IMG/VR virus record: IMGVR_UViG_2778261177_000001
Coordinates: 1-6,516 of that record
Reading direction: 5' to 3' (one strand)
Length of the DNA stretch: 6,516 nt
Origin: a virus
Lineage: Duplodnaviria > Heunggongvirae > Uroviricota > Caudoviricetes
Shown here: positions 1 to 6,516 of the stretch, in pieces
Position numbering within the stretch: position 1 is the stretch's first letter
Layout of the letters: every line of letters begins with the position of its first letter
Made by a program: the position numbers and the translations under genes
Notes under the pieces: model-generated
Seen by the model: only the letters and a program-made list of their open reading frames with translations
Told to the model about the DNA's origin: nothing
Database searches by the model: none

Positions 1-418
<418 letters not shown>

Positions 419-441
<23 letters not shown>

Positions 442-637
442 TTCTGATCCTCTTCAAAAGGCTACCTGTTACTGGTCGATTTAAGTCAACCTTTACCGCT
501 GATTCGTGGAACAGATACTCTCTTCCATCCTTAACCGGAGGAGGGAATATCCTGCATTCGCGTACCCATCGACGAACTGTTTCAAGGCTTCTTGGACGTC
601 GCTGGCGTGCGTTCCACTCCTGAAGTGTCAAGTACAT
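419..637 (-). CDS. xis: excisionase Xis (lambda-type)
   Basis: 72-aa ORF MYLTLQEWNARQRRPRSLETVRRWVRECRIFPPPVKDGREYLFHESAVKVDLNRPVTGSLLKRIRNGKKAKS, essentially identical to lambda Xis from memory. SD GGAG lies 8 nt upstream of the ATG. The 3' end overlaps the int start by 23 nt. Confidence 0.92.
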
Positions 638-664
638 CGCAAAGTCTCCGCAATTACACGCAAG

Positions 665-685
665 AAAAAACCGCCATCAGGCGGC
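665..685 (-). terminator. candidate intrinsic terminator between the Cys-rich gene and xis (minus-strand sense)
   Basis: Minus-strand RNA would read CCGCC-UGAU-GGCGG (5-bp all-GC stem, 4-nt loop) followed directly by UUUUUU. The stem is short, so strength is uncertain. Confidence 0.4.
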
Positions 686-727
686 TTGGTGTTCTTTCAG
701 TTCTTCAATTCGAATATTGGTTACGTC

Positions 728-1027
728 TTATTCGATGCGCACTCCTGGTATTTCGCCTTTTGATATTGCTAAGTCATAAATTTGCGCGGCACTATACCCA
801 TCTCGCATCCATGAATCTAAGGCGCGAACAGCCTCGCTACGCTTTTTATCTTCTCTCTCATTTTTGATATCAACGAGGACATCAACGCAATTAAGGCAAA
901 TGTGGATTTTGTCCTTACATTCGATCATGGCGGCTTTGCCATGATTTCCGCCACACAGTGAGCATAAATCTTCAGGGGCTGGCTGGTATTTCTGTAACGT
1001 TAGAGGGTTGAATGTTGAACAGGCCAT
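728..1027 (-). CDS. small Cys-rich putative zinc-ribbon protein, hypothetical; occupies the lambda ea8.5 position, possibly Ea8.5-like
   Basis: ORF 728..1039 in the track. I prefer the ATG at 1027 (MACSTFNPL...) because GGAG at 1034..1037 sits 6 nt upstream, whereas the ATG at 1039 has no SD. Cys spacing is C-x2-C-x11-C-x6-C-x2-C, followed by a helical-looking C-terminal half. Stop is TAA at 728..730. Confidence 0.6.
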   Translation of the reverse strand: MACSTFNPLTLQKYQPAPEDLCSLCGGNHGKAAMIECKDKIHICLNCVDVLVDIKNEREDKKRSEAVRALDSWMRDGYSAAQIYDLAISKGEIPGVRIE

Positions 1028-1037
1028 AATCATCTCC

Positions 1038-1064
1038 ATAAAACAAAACTCGCCGTAGCGAGTT
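1038..1064 (-). terminator. terminator-like hairpin plus U-tract immediately 5' of the Cys-rich gene start (minus-strand sense)
   Basis: Minus-strand RNA AACUCGC-UACG-GCGAGUU (7-bp stem, 4-nt loop) followed by UUGUUUUAU. The U-tract abuts the SD and start codon. Confidence 0.3.
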
Positions 1065-1065
1065 C

Positions 1066-1096
1066 AGATAAAAGAAATCCCCGCGAGTGCGAGGAT
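1066..1096 (-). terminator. candidate intrinsic terminator in the intergenic leader (minus-strand sense)
   Basis: Minus-strand RNA AUCCUCGC-ACUC-GCGGGGAU (8-bp stem including one G-U pair, 4-nt loop) followed by UUUCUUUUAU. Confidence 0.45.
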
Positions 1097-1221
1097 AGTT
1101 ATTCATTGTCGATATTTACATTTATTTCGAATATCTTTACTGGGTAATCGCCAAAGTCATATGTTTTTTATTCTGTTTTATAAGCACTACCAAGTACTGC
1201 TTATTACAAATAAGAAAAGGC

Positions 1222-1253
1222 TGAAAAAATATTTAAGGCCACAACTGTGGCCC
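1222..1253 (-). terminator. candidate intrinsic terminator downstream of the DUF1311-like gene (minus-strand sense)
   Basis: Begins 10 nt after the TAA stop. Minus-strand RNA GGCCAC-AGUU-GUGGCC (6-bp stem) followed by UUAAAUAUUUUUU. The U-run is slightly offset from the stem. Confidence 0.45.
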
Positions 1254-1262
1254 TAAATTTAC

Positions 1263-1961
1263 TTACGGCACTGCGTTAATCAGATTACAAATACCTCTTT
1301 TGGCAGGGTCTGAATTCAACTTCTGAAAATTGGCGTTCAACATAGCCGTGTGTAAGTGATTCTCAACCTCAAAGAATAAGTCGATTTTGCCCTCTTTGGC
1401 TGCCTGTTTCTTCCAAATATTCACTTGGTCATCAGCAATACGACTGGCGCAAGTGAACAAGAACGAACTGCCTCTAGGAATGGATGTCGTGCTGTAATAC
1501 TCACCATCTACTTCTACATATTTAGCTCGGAATGACTCTAAGGTTAGCTCATTGCCGTTCTTGACCGACTTAGCTTCTGCCTTACTTGTTTCTTCCTGCT
1601 CTTCAGAATGTTTCTGCGCCGACGTGGGTATGTCATTGGCCGCTGTTACGCTGACTGAACTCCCCAAACCTTTGAGGCCATTAATTTGGATAAGATAAGC
1701 CAGCTCCAGAGCCTTATTATCAGTGAGTTTTCCACGCATATTTACCCACTGACGTTGAACCATTTTTAGGGTGTCTGCGTTCTCTGGGTTTCCTTTGAGG
1801 GCACTAGAATAGGCAGAGCTAAGCTGTTCGTCTAATTTTGACAGACGTTCGTTATCGCAGATTTTATGTTCGATTGCTGTCGAAGCCTTTTGGCAGTCAA
1901 AGCTGGCTGCAAATGCACCCGGCGATGCCACTAACAATGATGCCAGTAGGATATTTTTCAT
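1263..1961 (-). CDS. secreted DUF1311 / lysozyme-inhibitor LprI-like family protein (moron)
   Basis: Track ORF 1263..1988. I prefer the ATG at 1961 (MKNILLASLLVASPGAFAASFDCQKAST...) because GGAG lies 6 nt upstream and it starts a canonical signal peptide (K, hydrophobic core, AFA-A cleavage-like site). The mature N-terminus FDCQKASTAIEHKICDNERLSKLDEQL...Y...QRQW matches my memory of the DUF1311/LprI N-terminal motif. Stop is TAA at 1263..1265. Confidence 0.75.
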   Translation of the reverse strand: MKNILLASLLVASPGAFAASFDCQKASTAIEHKICDNERLSKLDEQLSSAYSSALKGNPENADTLKMVQRQWVNMRGKLTDNKALELAYLIQINGLKGLGSSVSVTAANDIPTSAQKHSEEQEETSKAEAKSVKNGNELTLESFRAKYVEVDGEYYSTTSIPRGSSFLFTCASRIADDQVNIWKKQAAKEGKIDLFFEVENHLHTAMLNANFQKLNSDPAKRGICNLINAVP

Positions 1962-1984
1962 ATTCACTCCATAAATACAAAAGC

Positions 1985-2000
1985 GCATTACTATAGCACT
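1985..2000 (-). promoter_or_regulatory. candidate extended -10 sigma70 promoter for the DUF1311-like gene
   Basis: Minus strand reads GTGcTATAGT, a TGn-TATAGT extended -10 (plus coordinates 1990..1998), about 30 nt upstream of the ATG at 1961. No convincing -35 hexamer. Confidence 0.35.
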
Positions 2001-2091
2001 TAACCGATCGCTTATCTCGCCCGTTCGTCATTCTTATCTAACCAGAACATGCGACTGCCACAGCACATGTCGAGGATTGCTGCATGTCCAG

Positions 2092-2529
2092 TCACTGGTT
2101 GCCTCCTTTGCGAAGCTGGGCGGCTAACTCATCACATATGTGCGTCAAAGAGCAAAGTTTGATTGATGGGTGTTCGCGCATCATCTCAACCCCCTGCGCC
2201 CGCACTTCAGACAGGAAAGAGTCGGTGGCTGGGGTTTCAACACGGATGCTGTCGCGCAAGATGAAAAATGCATTGAGCATTCCAGTCTCTGGCACTTCAT
2301 CCTGATGCTTCTCATACGCATCAAGAGCCTTCATCATCTCTGCTCCGAATGGTTGAGGGTGCACAGACTTCAGCTCCGCATTCTCCGCCGCCAGCGCCGC
2401 GCACTTGGCCTCCGCTTCAGCAAATTTGCGTACCAGATATTCAGCATTTGTTTCGTTAACCTTTAAATCACATGGGATGCATTTACCTTTCAGAAATCCA
2501 TCCATCTCAATTAGTGTCATTCGTTTCAT
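2092..2529 (-). CDS. hypothetical protein (145 aa; coiled-coil-like central segment, CxxC near N-terminus and CxxxxxC near C-terminus)
   Basis: Track ORF 2092..2547 begins at a GTG. I prefer the ATG at 2529, which overlaps the upstream small-ORF stop as ATGA (translational coupling) and has GGAG 9 nt upstream. Stop is TGA at 2092..2094. Start is ambiguous between 2547 (GTG), 2529 and 2520. Confidence 0.6.
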
Positions 2530-2690
2530 TTCTTCCCACTCCGCCACATCGCATTCAGATATTTGTTTTGATTCACTGACGGAGAAGAATTTCTCTTAAG
2601 CAATTCCTCTCTCGATGGCATTGGCTTTACGCGTTGGCGAATAATCATTTCTGCCGGAAGAATGCCGGGATTGTATGCAAGTCCTCTCAT
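2526..2690 (-). CDS. small hypothetical protein (54 aa), middle gene of a coupled three-gene cassette
   Basis: ATG at 2690 is preceded by GAGGA 7 nt upstream, directly after the TGA stop of the 98-aa gene. Its stop overlaps the next gene start (ATGA). This is the 3' part of track ORF 2526..2843, whose full length starts at TTG and overlaps the 98-aa gene. Confidence 0.4.
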
Positions 2691-2700
2691 GGTAAATTCC

Positions 2701-2997
2701 TCAGTCATTACTGATAGCGCCATAGCGTGAGCGGTAATTACGCAGGCGCGGGTCGATATATTCAGGGAAGTGGGTATATGTGGCTTTGCGGAATGGTCGG
2801 ATTGATGTCTGGTAAATTCGCTCGCGTTCTTCTTTCTCTGCAAGCCATATACAGTGGCGAAATTCCTTTTCCTCTTTCGTTTCCTGCGGTAGAGACATTA
2901 TCCGGTCGTAGTTTTTCCTGAATTTATCCAGCACCTCCGATACGGAATTGCCGGAACAGCGGCGCGCGTCATCCGCACCATACAGAGGCGCTGGCAT
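2701..2997 (-). CDS. hypothetical protein (98 aa, basic, Arg/Lys/Glu-rich)
   Basis: ATG at 2997 with strong SD AGGAGA 5 nt upstream (minus strand aatcAGGAGAaaatcATG). Stop is TGA at 2701..2703. No family recognised. Confidence 0.65.
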
Positions 2998-3054
2998 GAT
3001 TTTCTCCTGATTAAATTGCGTGAATAGCGTGACGAGGGAAGGGGAGAGTTACTG

Positions 3055-5913
3055 GTGCAAAGGGTATACCCGAACACGGCACTGGTTGGCGTGCAGGTGG
3101 ACTCGGAGCAGTTCGGCAGCCAGCAGGTGAGCCGTAATTATCATCTTCGCGGGCGCATTCTGCAGGTGCCGTCGAACTATAACCCGCAGACGCGGCAATA
3201 CAGCGGTATCTGGGACGGAACGTTTAAGCCAGCATACAGCAACAACATGGCCTGGTGTCTGTGGGATATGCTGACCCATCCGCGCTACGGCATGGGGAAA
3301 CGTCTCGGTGCGGCGGATGTGGATAAATGGGCGCTGTATGTCATCGGCCAGAATTGCGACCAGTCGGTGCCGGACGGCTTTGGCGGTACGGAGCCGCGCA
3401 TCACCTGTAACGCTTACCTGACCACACAACGTAAGGCGTGGGATGTGCTCAGTGATTTCTGCTCGGCGATGCGCTGTATGCCGGTATGGAACGGGCAGAC
3501 GCTGACGTTCGTGCAGGACCGACCGTCGGATAAGGTGTGGACCTATAACCGCAGTAATGTGGTGATGCCGGATGATGGCGCGCCGTTCCGCTACAGCTTC
3601 AGCGCCCTGAAGGACCGCCATAATGCCGTTGAGGTGAACTGGATTGACCCGAATAACGGCTGGGAGACGGCGACAGAGCTTGTGGAGGACACGCAGGCCA
3701 TTGCCCGTTACGGTCGTAACGTCACGAAGATGGATGCTTTTGGCTGTACCAGCCGGGGGCAGGCACACCGCGCCGGGCTGTGGCTGATTAAAACAGAACT
3801 GCTGGAAACGCAGACCGTGGACTTCAGCGTGGGTGCCGAAGGGCTTCGCCATGTGCCGGGTGATGTTATTGAAATCTGCGATGATGATTATGCGGGTATC
3901 AGCACCGGCGGGCGTGTGCTGGCGGTGAACAGCCAGACCCGGACGCTGACGCTCGACCGTGAAATCACGCTGCCATCCTCCGGCACCACGCTGATAAGCC
4001 TGGTTGACGGGCAGGGGAATCCGGTCAGCGTGGAGGTTCAGTCCGTCACCGACGGCGTGAAGGTGAAAGTGAGCCGGGTTCCTGACGGCGTTGCAGAATA
4101 CAGCGTGTGGGGGCTGAAGCTGCCGACGCTGCGCCAGCGCCTGTTCCGCTGCGTGAGTATCCGTGAGAACGACGACGGCACGTATGCCATCACCGCCGTG
4201 CAGCATGTACCGGAAAAAGAGGCCATCGTGGATAACGGGGCGCACTTTGACGGCGACCAGAGCGGCACGGTAAATGGTGTCACGCCGCCAGCGGTGCAGC
4301 ACCTGACCGCAGAAGTCACCGCAGACAGCGGGGAATATCAGGTGCTGGCGCGCTGGGACACGCCGAAGGTGGTGAAGGGGGTGAGCTTTATGCTTCGCCT
4401 GACCGTGGCAGCGGATGACGGTAGTGAGCGGCTGGTCAGCACGGCCCGGACGGCGGAAACCACATACCGTTTCACACAACTGGCGCTGGGGAACTACACG
4501 CTGACGGTCCGGGCGGTAAATGCGTGGGGGCAGCAGGGCGATCCGGCGTCGGTATCGTTCCGGATTGCCGCACCGGCAGCACCGTCGAGGATTGAGCTGA
4601 CGCCGGGCTATTTTCAGATAACCGCCACGCCGCATCTTGCGGTTTATGATCCGACGGTACAGTTTGAGTTCTGGTTCTCGGAAAAGCGGATTGCGGATAT
4701 CAGGCAGGTTGAAACCACAGCCCGCTATCTTGGCATGGCGCTGTACTGGATAGCTGCCAGTATCAATATCAGGCCGGGCCATAATTATTATTTTTACGTT
4801 CGCAGTGTGAACACCGTTGGCAAATCGGCATTTGTGGAGGCTGTTGGCCAGCCGAGTGATGATGCATCCGGCTATCTGGATTTTTTCAAAGGCGAGATAG
4901 GGAAAACCCATCTGGCTCAGGAGTTGTGGACGCAGATTGATAACGGTCAGCTTGCGCCTGACCTGGCTGAAATCAGGACGTCCATTACGGGTGTCAGCAA
5001 TGAAATCACGCAGACCGTCAATAAGAAACTGGAAGACCAGAGCGCGGCAATCCAGCAGATACAGAAGGTTCAGGTTGATACAAATAATAACCTGAACAGC
5101 ATGTGGGCTGTGAAGCTGCAGCAGATGCAGGACGGACGCCTTTATATCGCGGGTATTGGTGCCGGTATTGAGAATACTCCTGACGGTATGCAGAGTCAGG
5201 TGCTGCTGGCGGCGGACAGGATTGCGATGATTAATCCTGCGAATGGCAACACAAAGCCGATGTTTGTTGGTCAGGGTGATCAGATATTCATGAACGAAGT
5301 GTTCCTGAAGTATCTGACGGCTCCCACCATTACCAGCGGCGGTAATCCTCCGGCATTTTCCCTGACACCGGACGGGCGGCTGACGGCGAAAAATGCCGAT
5401 ATCAGCGGTAACGTGAATGCGAACTCCGGGACGCTCAACAACGTCACGATTAACGAGAACTGTCAGATTAAGGGGAAACTGTCCGCCAACCAGATTGAGG
5501 GCGATATTGTCAAAACAGTGGGTAAGGCTTTCCCGCGGGACTCCCGGGCACCGGAGCGGTGGCCATCAGGAACCATTACCGTCAGGATTTATGACGATCA
5601 GCCTTTTGACCGGCAGATTGTTATTCCAGCGGTGGCTTTCAGCGGTGCCAGACATGAGCGGGAGAATAGCGATACTTATTCGTCATGCCGCCTGATAGTG
5701 AAGAAAAACGGGGCTGAAATTTATAACCGAACGGCTCTGGATAATACGCTGATATACACGGGTGTTATTGATATGCCTGCAGGCAGTGGCGTAATGACAC
5801 TGGAGTTTTCTGTATCAGCATGGTGGGTAAATGACTGGTATCCCACAGCAAGTATCAGCGATTTGCTGGTTGTTGTGATGAAGAAAGCCACTGCAGGCAT
5901 CACGATTAGCTGA
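3055..5913 (+). CDS. J: host specificity / central tail fibre protein J, 5'-truncated (lacks about 180 N-terminal residues; probable pseudogene or remnant)
   Basis: 952-codon frame. From about 3064 ([69 protein letters not shown]...) it matches lambda J from around residue 183 to the C-terminus, as I recall it. An in-frame TAG at 3025..3027 and the divergent gene starting at 2997 leave no room for the J N-terminus. Track start 3055 is a GTG with GGAG about 8 nt upstream. Stop is TGA at 5911..5913. Confidence 0.88.
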
Positions 5914-5931
5914 ATTTTATAACCCAGATAC

Positions 5932-5959
5932 GGGCGCCAGAAATGGCGCCTTTTTTATT
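5932..5959 (+). terminator. rho-independent terminator downstream of J
   Basis: GGCGCC-AGAAAU-GGCGCC (6-bp GC-rich stem, 6-nt loop) followed by UUUUUUAUU, 19 nt after the J stop. Confidence 0.7.
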
Positions 5960-5980
5960 GCAGAAAAGCGAGAGGTAATT

Positions 5981-6516
5981 ATGCGTAAAGTTTGTGCAGC
6001 CATTTTGTCCGCAGCCATCTGTCTGGCCGTATCCGGTGCGCCTTCATGGGCGTCTGAGCAGCAGGCCACACTGAGCGCAGGGTATCTTCATGCCCGTACG
6101 AACGCTCCCGGCAGCGATAATCTGAACGGGATTAACGTGAAATACCGTTATGAGTTTACGGACACGCTGGGGCTGATTACGTCCTTCAGTTATGCCAATG
6201 CTGAAGATGAGCAAAAAACGCATTACAGCGATACCCGCTGGCATGAGGATTCCGTGCGTAACCGCTGGTTCAGCGTGATGGCGGGACCGTCTGTGCGCGT
6301 GAATGAATGGTTCAGCGCGTATGCGATGGCGGGTGTGGCTTACAGCCGTGTGTCGACTTTCTCCGGGGATTATCTCCGCGTAACTGACAACAAGGGGAAA
6401 ACGCATGATGTGCTGACCGGAAGTGATGACGGTCGCCACAGCAACACGTCTCTGGCGTGGTGGGCTGGCGTGCAGTTTAACCCGACCGAATCCGTGGCCA
6501 TTGATATTGCTTATGA
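5981..6516 (+). CDS. lom: outer membrane protein Lom (Ail/Lom family beta-barrel), 5' portion; continues beyond window end
   Basis: ATG at 5981 with SD AGAGG 5 nt upstream. Translation MRKVCAAILSAAICLAVSGAPSWASEQQATLSAGYLHARTNAPGSDNLNGINVKYRYEFTDTLGL... closely matches lambda Lom including the signal peptide. Open to the window end, so absent from the ORF track. Confidence 0.9.
   Translation, partial: MRKVCAAILSAAICLAVSGAPSWASEQQATLSAGYLHARTNAPGSDNLNGINVKYRYEFTDTLGLITSFSYANAEDEQKTHYSDTRWHEDSVRNRWFSVMAGPSVRVNEWFSAYAMAGVAYSRVSTFSGDYLRVTDNKGKTHDVLTGSDDGRHSNTSLAWWAGVQFNPTESVAIDIAY

Follow-up and report, generated by a model that had tools for sequence, protein, structure and literature searches.

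A junction between ssb and the tail gene J in a defective prophage of Escherichia coli is probably the scar of a single large deletion

The cryptic lambdoid prophages of Escherichia coli, such as Rac, DLP12, e14 and Qin of strain K-12 and the effector-carrying elements of EPEC and EHEC, have lost essential modules by deletion and IS insertion and keep the genes located at the prophage ends, i.e., int/xis, accessory genes, lom, tail-fibre genes and cargo. Degeneration of lambdoid prophages by deletion has been described in a review (PMC6379469). The stretch of DNA analysed here, to which we refer as the window, has undergone losses of the same kind and retains genes of the same kind. It is 6,516 bp long and constitutes a whole draft contig, NLOX01000049.1 of assembly GCA_002230545.1, to which it is identical in sequence, and all of its close matches are E. 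coli prophages and coliphages. What distinguishes the window from the known cryptic prophages is its strain-specific breakpoints, which join codon 150/151 of a phage ssb gene to codon 211/212 of the gene for the tail tip attachment protein J (Table 1).

Table 1. Features of the 6,516-bp window (strand given relative to the orientation analysed).
Feature	Position	Strand	Basis or remark
IS100 (IS21-family) terminus	1-55		exact 55-nt match; interrupts int, contig ends within IS100
int 5' fragment, ~128 codons	56-441	-	translation; intact 357-aa Int of locus L001; Pfam Arm-DNA-bind_1
xis (excisionase), 72 aa	419-637	-	Pfam Exc; excisionase annotation in relatives
Early-left accessory genes, four	728-2690	-	segment 99% identical to MFDS1001074 prophage at mdtA/ibs
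99-aa Cys-rich hypothetical protein	728-1027	-	
LprI-family protein	1263-1961	-	
145-aa hypothetical protein, no family	2092-2529	-	
DUF2737 protein	2526-2690	-	
abc2 (anti-RecBCD protein), intact 98 aa	2701-2997	-	PF11043 Anti-RecBCD_p2; ATG at 2995-2997
abc2-ssb intergenic spacer, 13 bp	2998-3010	-	read from sequence; colinear with locus L001 5943-5955
ssb 3' remnant: stop codon, last 18 codons and 1 nt	3011-3068	-	identity to intact-ssb relatives
Fortuitous GTG start and three codons, Q-R-V	3055-3066	+	antisense of ssb
Deletion junction, TA	3067-3068		three-way alignment and parent comparison
J codons 212-1159 and stop, frame intact	3067-5913	+	tail tip attachment / host specificity gene
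lom (Ail/Lom outer-membrane protein), first 178 of 199 codons	5981-6516	+	Pfam Ail_Lom, E = 4.7e-110; full-length Lom compared

Unlike the window, the lambda-like Escherichia phage ev099 (NC_049953) is intact (47 kb), and it carries in one genome both types of arm found in the window, in the order and on the strands that a deletion would require. The ev099 map reads A...J(+), lom(+), stf, att, int(-), xis(-), LprI(-), early-left genes(-), N, cI, cro, O, P, Q, lysis genes and cos, and the arrangement found in the window, int(-), xis(-), ..., abc2(-), ssb'(-) followed by 'J(+), lom(+), corresponds to this map permuted at att. The int-xis-LprI segment of ev099 is 98.6% identical to the window over positions 267-2232, and its J-lom segment is 94% identical. 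The recombination modules of the two elements are different: ev099 encodes exo/bet/gam, whereas the left arm of the window carries a module of the abc2/ssb/Rad52 type.

In our opinion, the junction is very probably the scar of one large non-homologous deletion in a lambdoid prophage of E. coli. The ancestral prophage would have had the order int, xis, early-left genes, immunity, replication, lysis, head, tail, J, lom, stf, and the whole middle of the integrated prophage would have been lost in one illegitimate deletion that removed the recombination, immunity, replication, lysis, head and tail genes together with codons 1-211 of J and connected what remained of ssb and J at a 2-bp TA overlap. 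The resulting element would be unable to make phage, and what it would retain is the set of early-left accessory genes, lom, and a J pseudogene that is 5'-truncated and has no promoter. Between its two arms the window has no genes for recombination, immunity, replication, lysis, head or tail, and both breakpoints lie inside genes that are intact in relatives; these breakpoints, as well as the order and orientation of the genes, are seen directly. From them we infer a single event, its molecular mechanism and its length, which would be ~31-33 kb by arithmetic on ev099 and lambda coordinates, from the recombination module to codon 211 of J. These two genomes were used for the estimate because the closest relatives of the left arm, found at the mdtA/ibs site, are themselves deleted; the search for an intact parent prophage at that site thus ended with elements that also carry deletions. 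The original prediction had likewise invoked one large deletion, which stands as the best explanation, while both of the endpoints proposed for it had to be moved.

The left arm is 99.0% identical over positions 56-3068 to the prophage located beside mdtA/ibs in strain MFDS1001074 and 100% identical over positions 2760-3068 to strain STECUZB006, and its identity to relatives carrying abc2-ssb stops after base 3068. In both of these strains abc2 is followed by a 13-bp spacer and then by a phage ssb gene of 168 aa on the same strand. The intact product, which is 168 aa long in loci L001, L005 and L008, contains the Pfam SSB domain. In the window, the ssb stop codon occupies positions 3011-3013 and the last 18 codons extend to 3067; the break lies 55 nt upstream of the stop codon, between the DDD and IPF codons of the C-terminal motif. 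The left endpoint, which had been placed among the xis-proximal accessory genes, is therefore in a gene of the recombination module. Two landmarks noticed earlier upstream of J are really there: the divergent start of a 98-aa gene is the minus-strand ATG of abc2, whose product is named 'phage anti-RecBCD protein' in members of its cluster and in relatives, and the TAG in frame with J, at 3025-3027, is antisense of ssb codons. The abc2-ssb spacer contains the ribosome-binding site of abc2, which reads GGAGAAAA on the minus strand. The region flagged at the outset, 2998-3066, consists of this spacer and the 3' end of ssb, which had been overlooked.

On the right side, base 3067 is where identity to J begins, both in phages and in 4,437 records of E. 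coli (megablast). An abrupt onset of J similarity had been expected near 3064; the onset is indeed sharp, but the megablast J matches all start at 3067, apart from a few that begin at 3055 owing to patchy chance similarity. The first J-derived codon, TAC at 3067-3069, corresponds to Tyr212 of lambda J and likewise of the J alleles that are 1159 aa long, 29 residues higher than the breakpoint near residue 183 that had been suggested. The reading frame is open over 952 codons, as stated originally, of which four (GTG-Q-R-V) are not J and 948 are J-derived, the intact protein being 1159 aa in relatives. The best J identity is 96-98%, and the two 1.4-kb halves of the remnant, when searched separately, gave best values of 97.8% and 97.0%. 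Residues 212 to the end of lambda gpJ (1132 aa) are colinear with J of the window, and lom follows in both. Unlike lambda gpJ, J of the window has neither a start codon of its own nor the upstream genes L, K and I, and its C-terminal third belongs to a non-lambda allele type, with 37-69% nucleotide identity over 4867-5913.

[quoted passage not shown] The remnant lacks J residues 1-211, that is, the N-terminal part of the HDII-insertion domain and the FNIII-A domain, and because this N-terminal region is gone the truncated J is left without a part of its hub domain. A Pfam comparison agrees with this: FNIII-A_GpJ (PF24801), which lies at residues 86-207 of the intact J of vB_EcoS-640R1, is absent from the open reading frame of the window, in which Phage-tail_3, Ig_J, Ig_J_second, Phage_Tail_Tip and Ig_GpJ_C are all present (E 1e-32 to 1e-43). 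The C-terminal receptor-binding domain of J is also retained.

J does not naturally begin at this point, which the original prediction had named as grounds for rejecting a deletion. In lambda, vB_EcoS-640R1 and four E. coli prophages, the start of J lies 633 nt upstream of where the match begins, and in 6/6 intact loci examined it is preceded by the tail-tip genes L, K and I; in the window, lom is found downstream of J as usual, but antisense ssb and abc2 take the place of L, K and I. Full-length J has ~1130-1165 aa and starts with MGKGSS..., which the open reading frame of the window does not. Its 952-aa product, encoded by 3055-5913, is on record in this single contig and falls into a 90%-identity cluster of 34,633 proteins, which are typically 1159-1165 aa long. 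Short members of the cluster (953, 952, 944, 973 and 1012 aa) were considered as candidates for the same truncation, but they are partial sequences, and none of them begins with MQRVYPN: those of 953, 952 and 973 aa have the normal MGKGSS start and end short C-terminally, and those of 944 and 1012 aa start at other internal points of J.

The left arm matches its relatives at 99-100% and the J arm at only 97-98%, and the closest relatives of the two arms differ. Considering that the number of J copies per E. coli genome has a median of 3 and reaches 14, and that the final junction alone is visible, the two arms might have come from different prophages, or the junction might be the last of several successive deletions or rearrangements. 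We regard this as unlikely. Lambdoid genomes are mosaic, so their modules normally differ in closest relatives; intact phage ev099 has both types of arm in the required arrangement; and the remnants located at mdtA/ibs keep this same int end together with the lom/tail-fibre end in the same orientation. In addition, more steps would be needed to arrive at the exact order and orientation observed.

A single deletion within one prophage is also compatible with what is found at the junction itself. In a three-way alignment, the left parent reads ...GGTGCAAAGGGTATA up to the break and TCGTCGTC beyond it, the J parent reads ...GTGAAACAG(T/G)GCTA before the break and CCCGAACACGG after it, and the window reads ...GGTGCAAAGGGTATACCCGAACACGG across the junction. 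Only the dinucleotide TA is common to both parents in register, and the switch from one to the other is otherwise clean. The longest word common to the two parental breakpoints within 100 nt on either side has 7 nt and is out of register, and random segment pairs give a null distribution of the longest common word with a mode of 7-8 nt. Over the 14 bases that precede the break, 8-9 are identical in register (p ~0.016 for at least 9 of 14, given the TA), a patchy similarity that is at best a weak, post-hoc hint. By calculation, a 2-bp overlap is expected in ~16% of random joins, and the overlap itself does not even show that microhomology was used. The short direct repeats suggested as possible mediators of the deletion are not found above chance within 100 nt of the breakpoints, and neither is a direct repeat of tens of bases present at both of them. 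No IS end is located at the junction, where ssb abuts J directly; the sole IS end is 3 kb away. This lack of a repeat or an IS element at the junction is a direct observation, and homologous, site-specific and IS-mediated recombination do not fit it.

Since there is no repeat above chance and no IS end at the junction, the joining was probably illegitimate and RecA-independent. A junction with 2 bp of microhomology, with no IS and no long repeat, is the signature of RecA-independent illegitimate recombination or microhomology-mediated end joining. The window resembles in this respect the products of RecA-independent illegitimate recombination and end joining in E. coli, although in our case the mechanism is read from the scar alone. 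The joining would fit either end joining or replication slippage with minimal microhomology.

The 2-bp overlap bears as well on the possibility that the contig is an assembly chimera, in which an ssb-bearing and a J-bearing prophage that are non-adjacent in the real genome were joined. The whole window is one short draft contig with a repeat at either end, the terminus of an IS100 on the left and, on the right, multicopy lom, which is cut by the contig end, and its junction rests on one short-read assembly. It is, moreover, common to no other genome: megablast with a 601-nt junction-spanning query did not find it in any of 5,426 complete E. coli genomes, scans for exact junction words of 20-42 nt had no match in 185,579 GTDB species-representative genomes, JGI metagenomes and IMG/VR, and among the collections searched the junction is found in this contig only. 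At the same time, the parents overlap by just 2 bp where they meet, and the longest word common to them within 100 nt has 7 nt, so that a repeat-driven misjoin by a de Bruijn or overlap assembler is excluded. The contig runs unbranched for 3 kb on each side of the junction, where it would normally be expected to break if intact continuations of ssb and J coexisted with it; the order and strands of its genes are exactly those that a prophage deletion predicts, an agreement that a random chimera would reach only by chance; and the contig is recorded in two samples, which may not be independent. We therefore consider a chimera very unlikely. Of the misassembly that the original prediction named as grounds for rejecting a deletion, the repeat-driven kind is eliminated, and what is left is a chimeric read, to which we assign a very low probability. 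The positions at which the contig ends, 55 nt into IS100 and inside lom, look like the typical stops of a k-mer graph assembler at repeats.

If the junction is a real deletion scar, its absence elsewhere agrees with a young, strain-specific event, and the substitutions in J, which can be counted directly, lead in the same direction. The dN/dS between the remnant and five intact J genes is 0.064-0.094, and among the intact J genes it is 0.072-0.120. The window departs from all six references at 23 positions, with 19 synonymous and 4 non-synonymous differences; ~76% of sites are non-synonymous. This pattern suggests that nearly all of the J divergence arose when J still belonged to a working phage and was under purifying selection, and neither the dN/dS values nor the substitutions contain detectable neutral decay in the remnant since the deletion. 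That the J frame is still open would thus reflect a deletion that is young compared with the divergence among J alleles; an open frame of 948 codons is then expected, and selection on the remnant is not needed. Of the two explanations offered originally for the open frame, the substitution pattern speaks for a recent event and not for selection on the downstream region, as dN/dS of the remnant equals that among intact copies. With a J remnant that has no signs of decay, the deletion looks younger than those of the K-12 cryptic prophages.

The truncated J could in principle be translated. The GTG at 3055-3057 is preceded, with an 8-nt spacer, by GGAG at 3043-3046, and gene callers choose this GTG as the start; to judge by its sequence, the AGGGGAG that ends 8 nt upstream of the GTG is a reasonable candidate for a ribosome-binding site. 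All of these elements are antisense of ssb codons. In a simple consensus scan of positions 2400-3400 on either strand, which is weak evidence, no sigma-70-like promoter or terminator was found, and the phage late promoter and Q are deleted. Expression of the truncated J is therefore possible only by read-through or from weak promoters. The earlier suggestion that the GTG and GGAG might allow translation is correct in that both are present, but they are a fortuitous product of antisense ssb and lack a promoter-like site.

Could the 952-codon frame, then, be a functional, selected short variant of J that is translated from GTG 3055? It is open throughout, has a GGAG 8 nt upstream of its start, is annotated by gene callers, and encodes all of the C-terminal J domains in intact form, including the receptor-binding domain. 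We nevertheless find this extremely improbable, given that the deletion brought antisense ssb codons into place as both start codon and Shine-Dalgarno sequence, that no promoter-like site was found within 650 nt upstream, and that the product would be without residues 1-211 and without its partners, since the deletion also took L, K, I, H and the other partner genes. The pattern of substitutions is the same as in intact J and offers no evidence of selection after the deletion, and the junction is in no other genome searched. It is only marginally less doubtful that the host keeps a translatable 5'-truncated J for its own use, or keeps the DNA as a host-range reservoir. If this were true, a truncated J with a complete central fibre and receptor-binding domain might, for example, mask receptors or act in exclusion, or else the DNA could serve as a reservoir of host-range sequences that are recombined into infecting lambdoid phages.

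The preferred reading, a deletion that left behind a non-functional J, has close parallels. Three related remnants (L005, L008 and L011) have different internal deletions and have kept the int end and the lom/tail-fibre end. At the mdtA/ibs site of Z1323PEC0012, a partial replication gene P abuts the C-terminus of a tail fibre, followed by cif, nleG and espJ; at the same site in TK3887, recT and a lysozyme gene, both truncated, abut each other, and lom and tail-fibre genes come next; and at another site in STECUZB006, a deletion extends from the late region to the C-terminus of a tail fibre. Taken with these three remnants, the window points to recurrent decay in which the lethal core is lost while int-proximal accessory genes and lom, tail-fibre or effector cargo are kept. 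This is ordinary prophage decay, and the type of event is already known. The open reading frame annotated as 'host specificity protein J' should accordingly be described as a 5'-truncated pseudogene in a dead prophage and not as a short variant of J. As a young and strain-specific deletion, the junction could serve as a lineage marker; beyond correct annotation its importance is small.

The left end of the window carries a further lesion, which had been overlooked in the original prediction: int is truncated by IS100 after approximately codon 128. The Int-like sequence stops at ...AAMLN, and the int reading frame continues into IS100. The same 55 nt adjoin istA in two further genomes of E. coli, in each of which the flanking sequence is different. 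One match (H4), which seemingly covered the window from 1 to 6516, was rejected as an artefact in which a J match had been joined to an unrelated copy of IS100; it nonetheless helped to identify positions 1-55 of the window as IS100.

The deletion that joins the 3' remnant of ssb to the interior of J has its endpoint exactly between the DDD and IPF codons of the single-stranded DNA-binding protein gene. In the phage SSB encoded by the recombination module of the related prophage locus L001, where ssb is intact, the DDDIPF tip is internal and is followed by 13 further residues, whereas in E. coli SSB the same tip forms the extreme C-terminus and serves as the partner-binding element.

Large internal deletions, each of them different, are also present in three further E. 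coli prophage remnants, two of which (L005, strain Z1323PEC0012, and L011, strain TK3887) occupy the mdtA/ibs site, the third being L008 (STECUZB006). In all three, early or replication genes are fused to lysis or tail-fibre genes; one end of each remnant still carries int-xis with accessory genes, and the opposite end carries lom, tail-fibre or type III effector cargo (cif, nleG, espJ, nleC). The prophage studied here also has its integrase gene cut by IS100, an IS21-family element, and is therefore disabled twice over. The left contig end lies exactly 55 nt inside IS100 and resembles the break of a k = 55 assembly graph at a repeat.

Features of the prophage fragment and of related loci
Feature	Location	Strand
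IS100 terminus, exact	window 1-55	
Integrase, cut after about codon 128 by the IS100 terminus	window 56-441	
99-aa protein, CxxC...CxxC spacing (CSLCGG...CLNC)	window 728-1027	-
145-aa acidic protein, coiled-coil look	window 2092-2529	-
ssb remnant	window 3011-3067	
Intact ssb	L001 5956-6462	
Internal deletion	L005 10262-11499	
Internal deletion	L011 4852-5956	
Internal deletion	L008 17510-18802	

In a search of complete E. coli genomes with 1.4-kb pieces of the J remnant (3067-5913), each piece matched at about 15,000 places, and even so the best identities were at most 97.8% and 97.0%, in contrast to 99-100% for the best matches of the left arm. The mismatches are scattered along J in patches that vary with the reference, a pattern that suggests fine-scale mosaicism of J alleles.

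Two early-left ORFs, encoding the 99-aa and 145-aa proteins, are 98-99% conserved among related prophages, and neither has a Pfam family.

At the right end, Lom contains LAWWAG (about 6455-6470), which in a close relative is LAWGAG. Because the Gly-to-Trp difference is only about 50 nt away from the right end of the contig, it may represent either a genuine allele or a sequence error close to that end.
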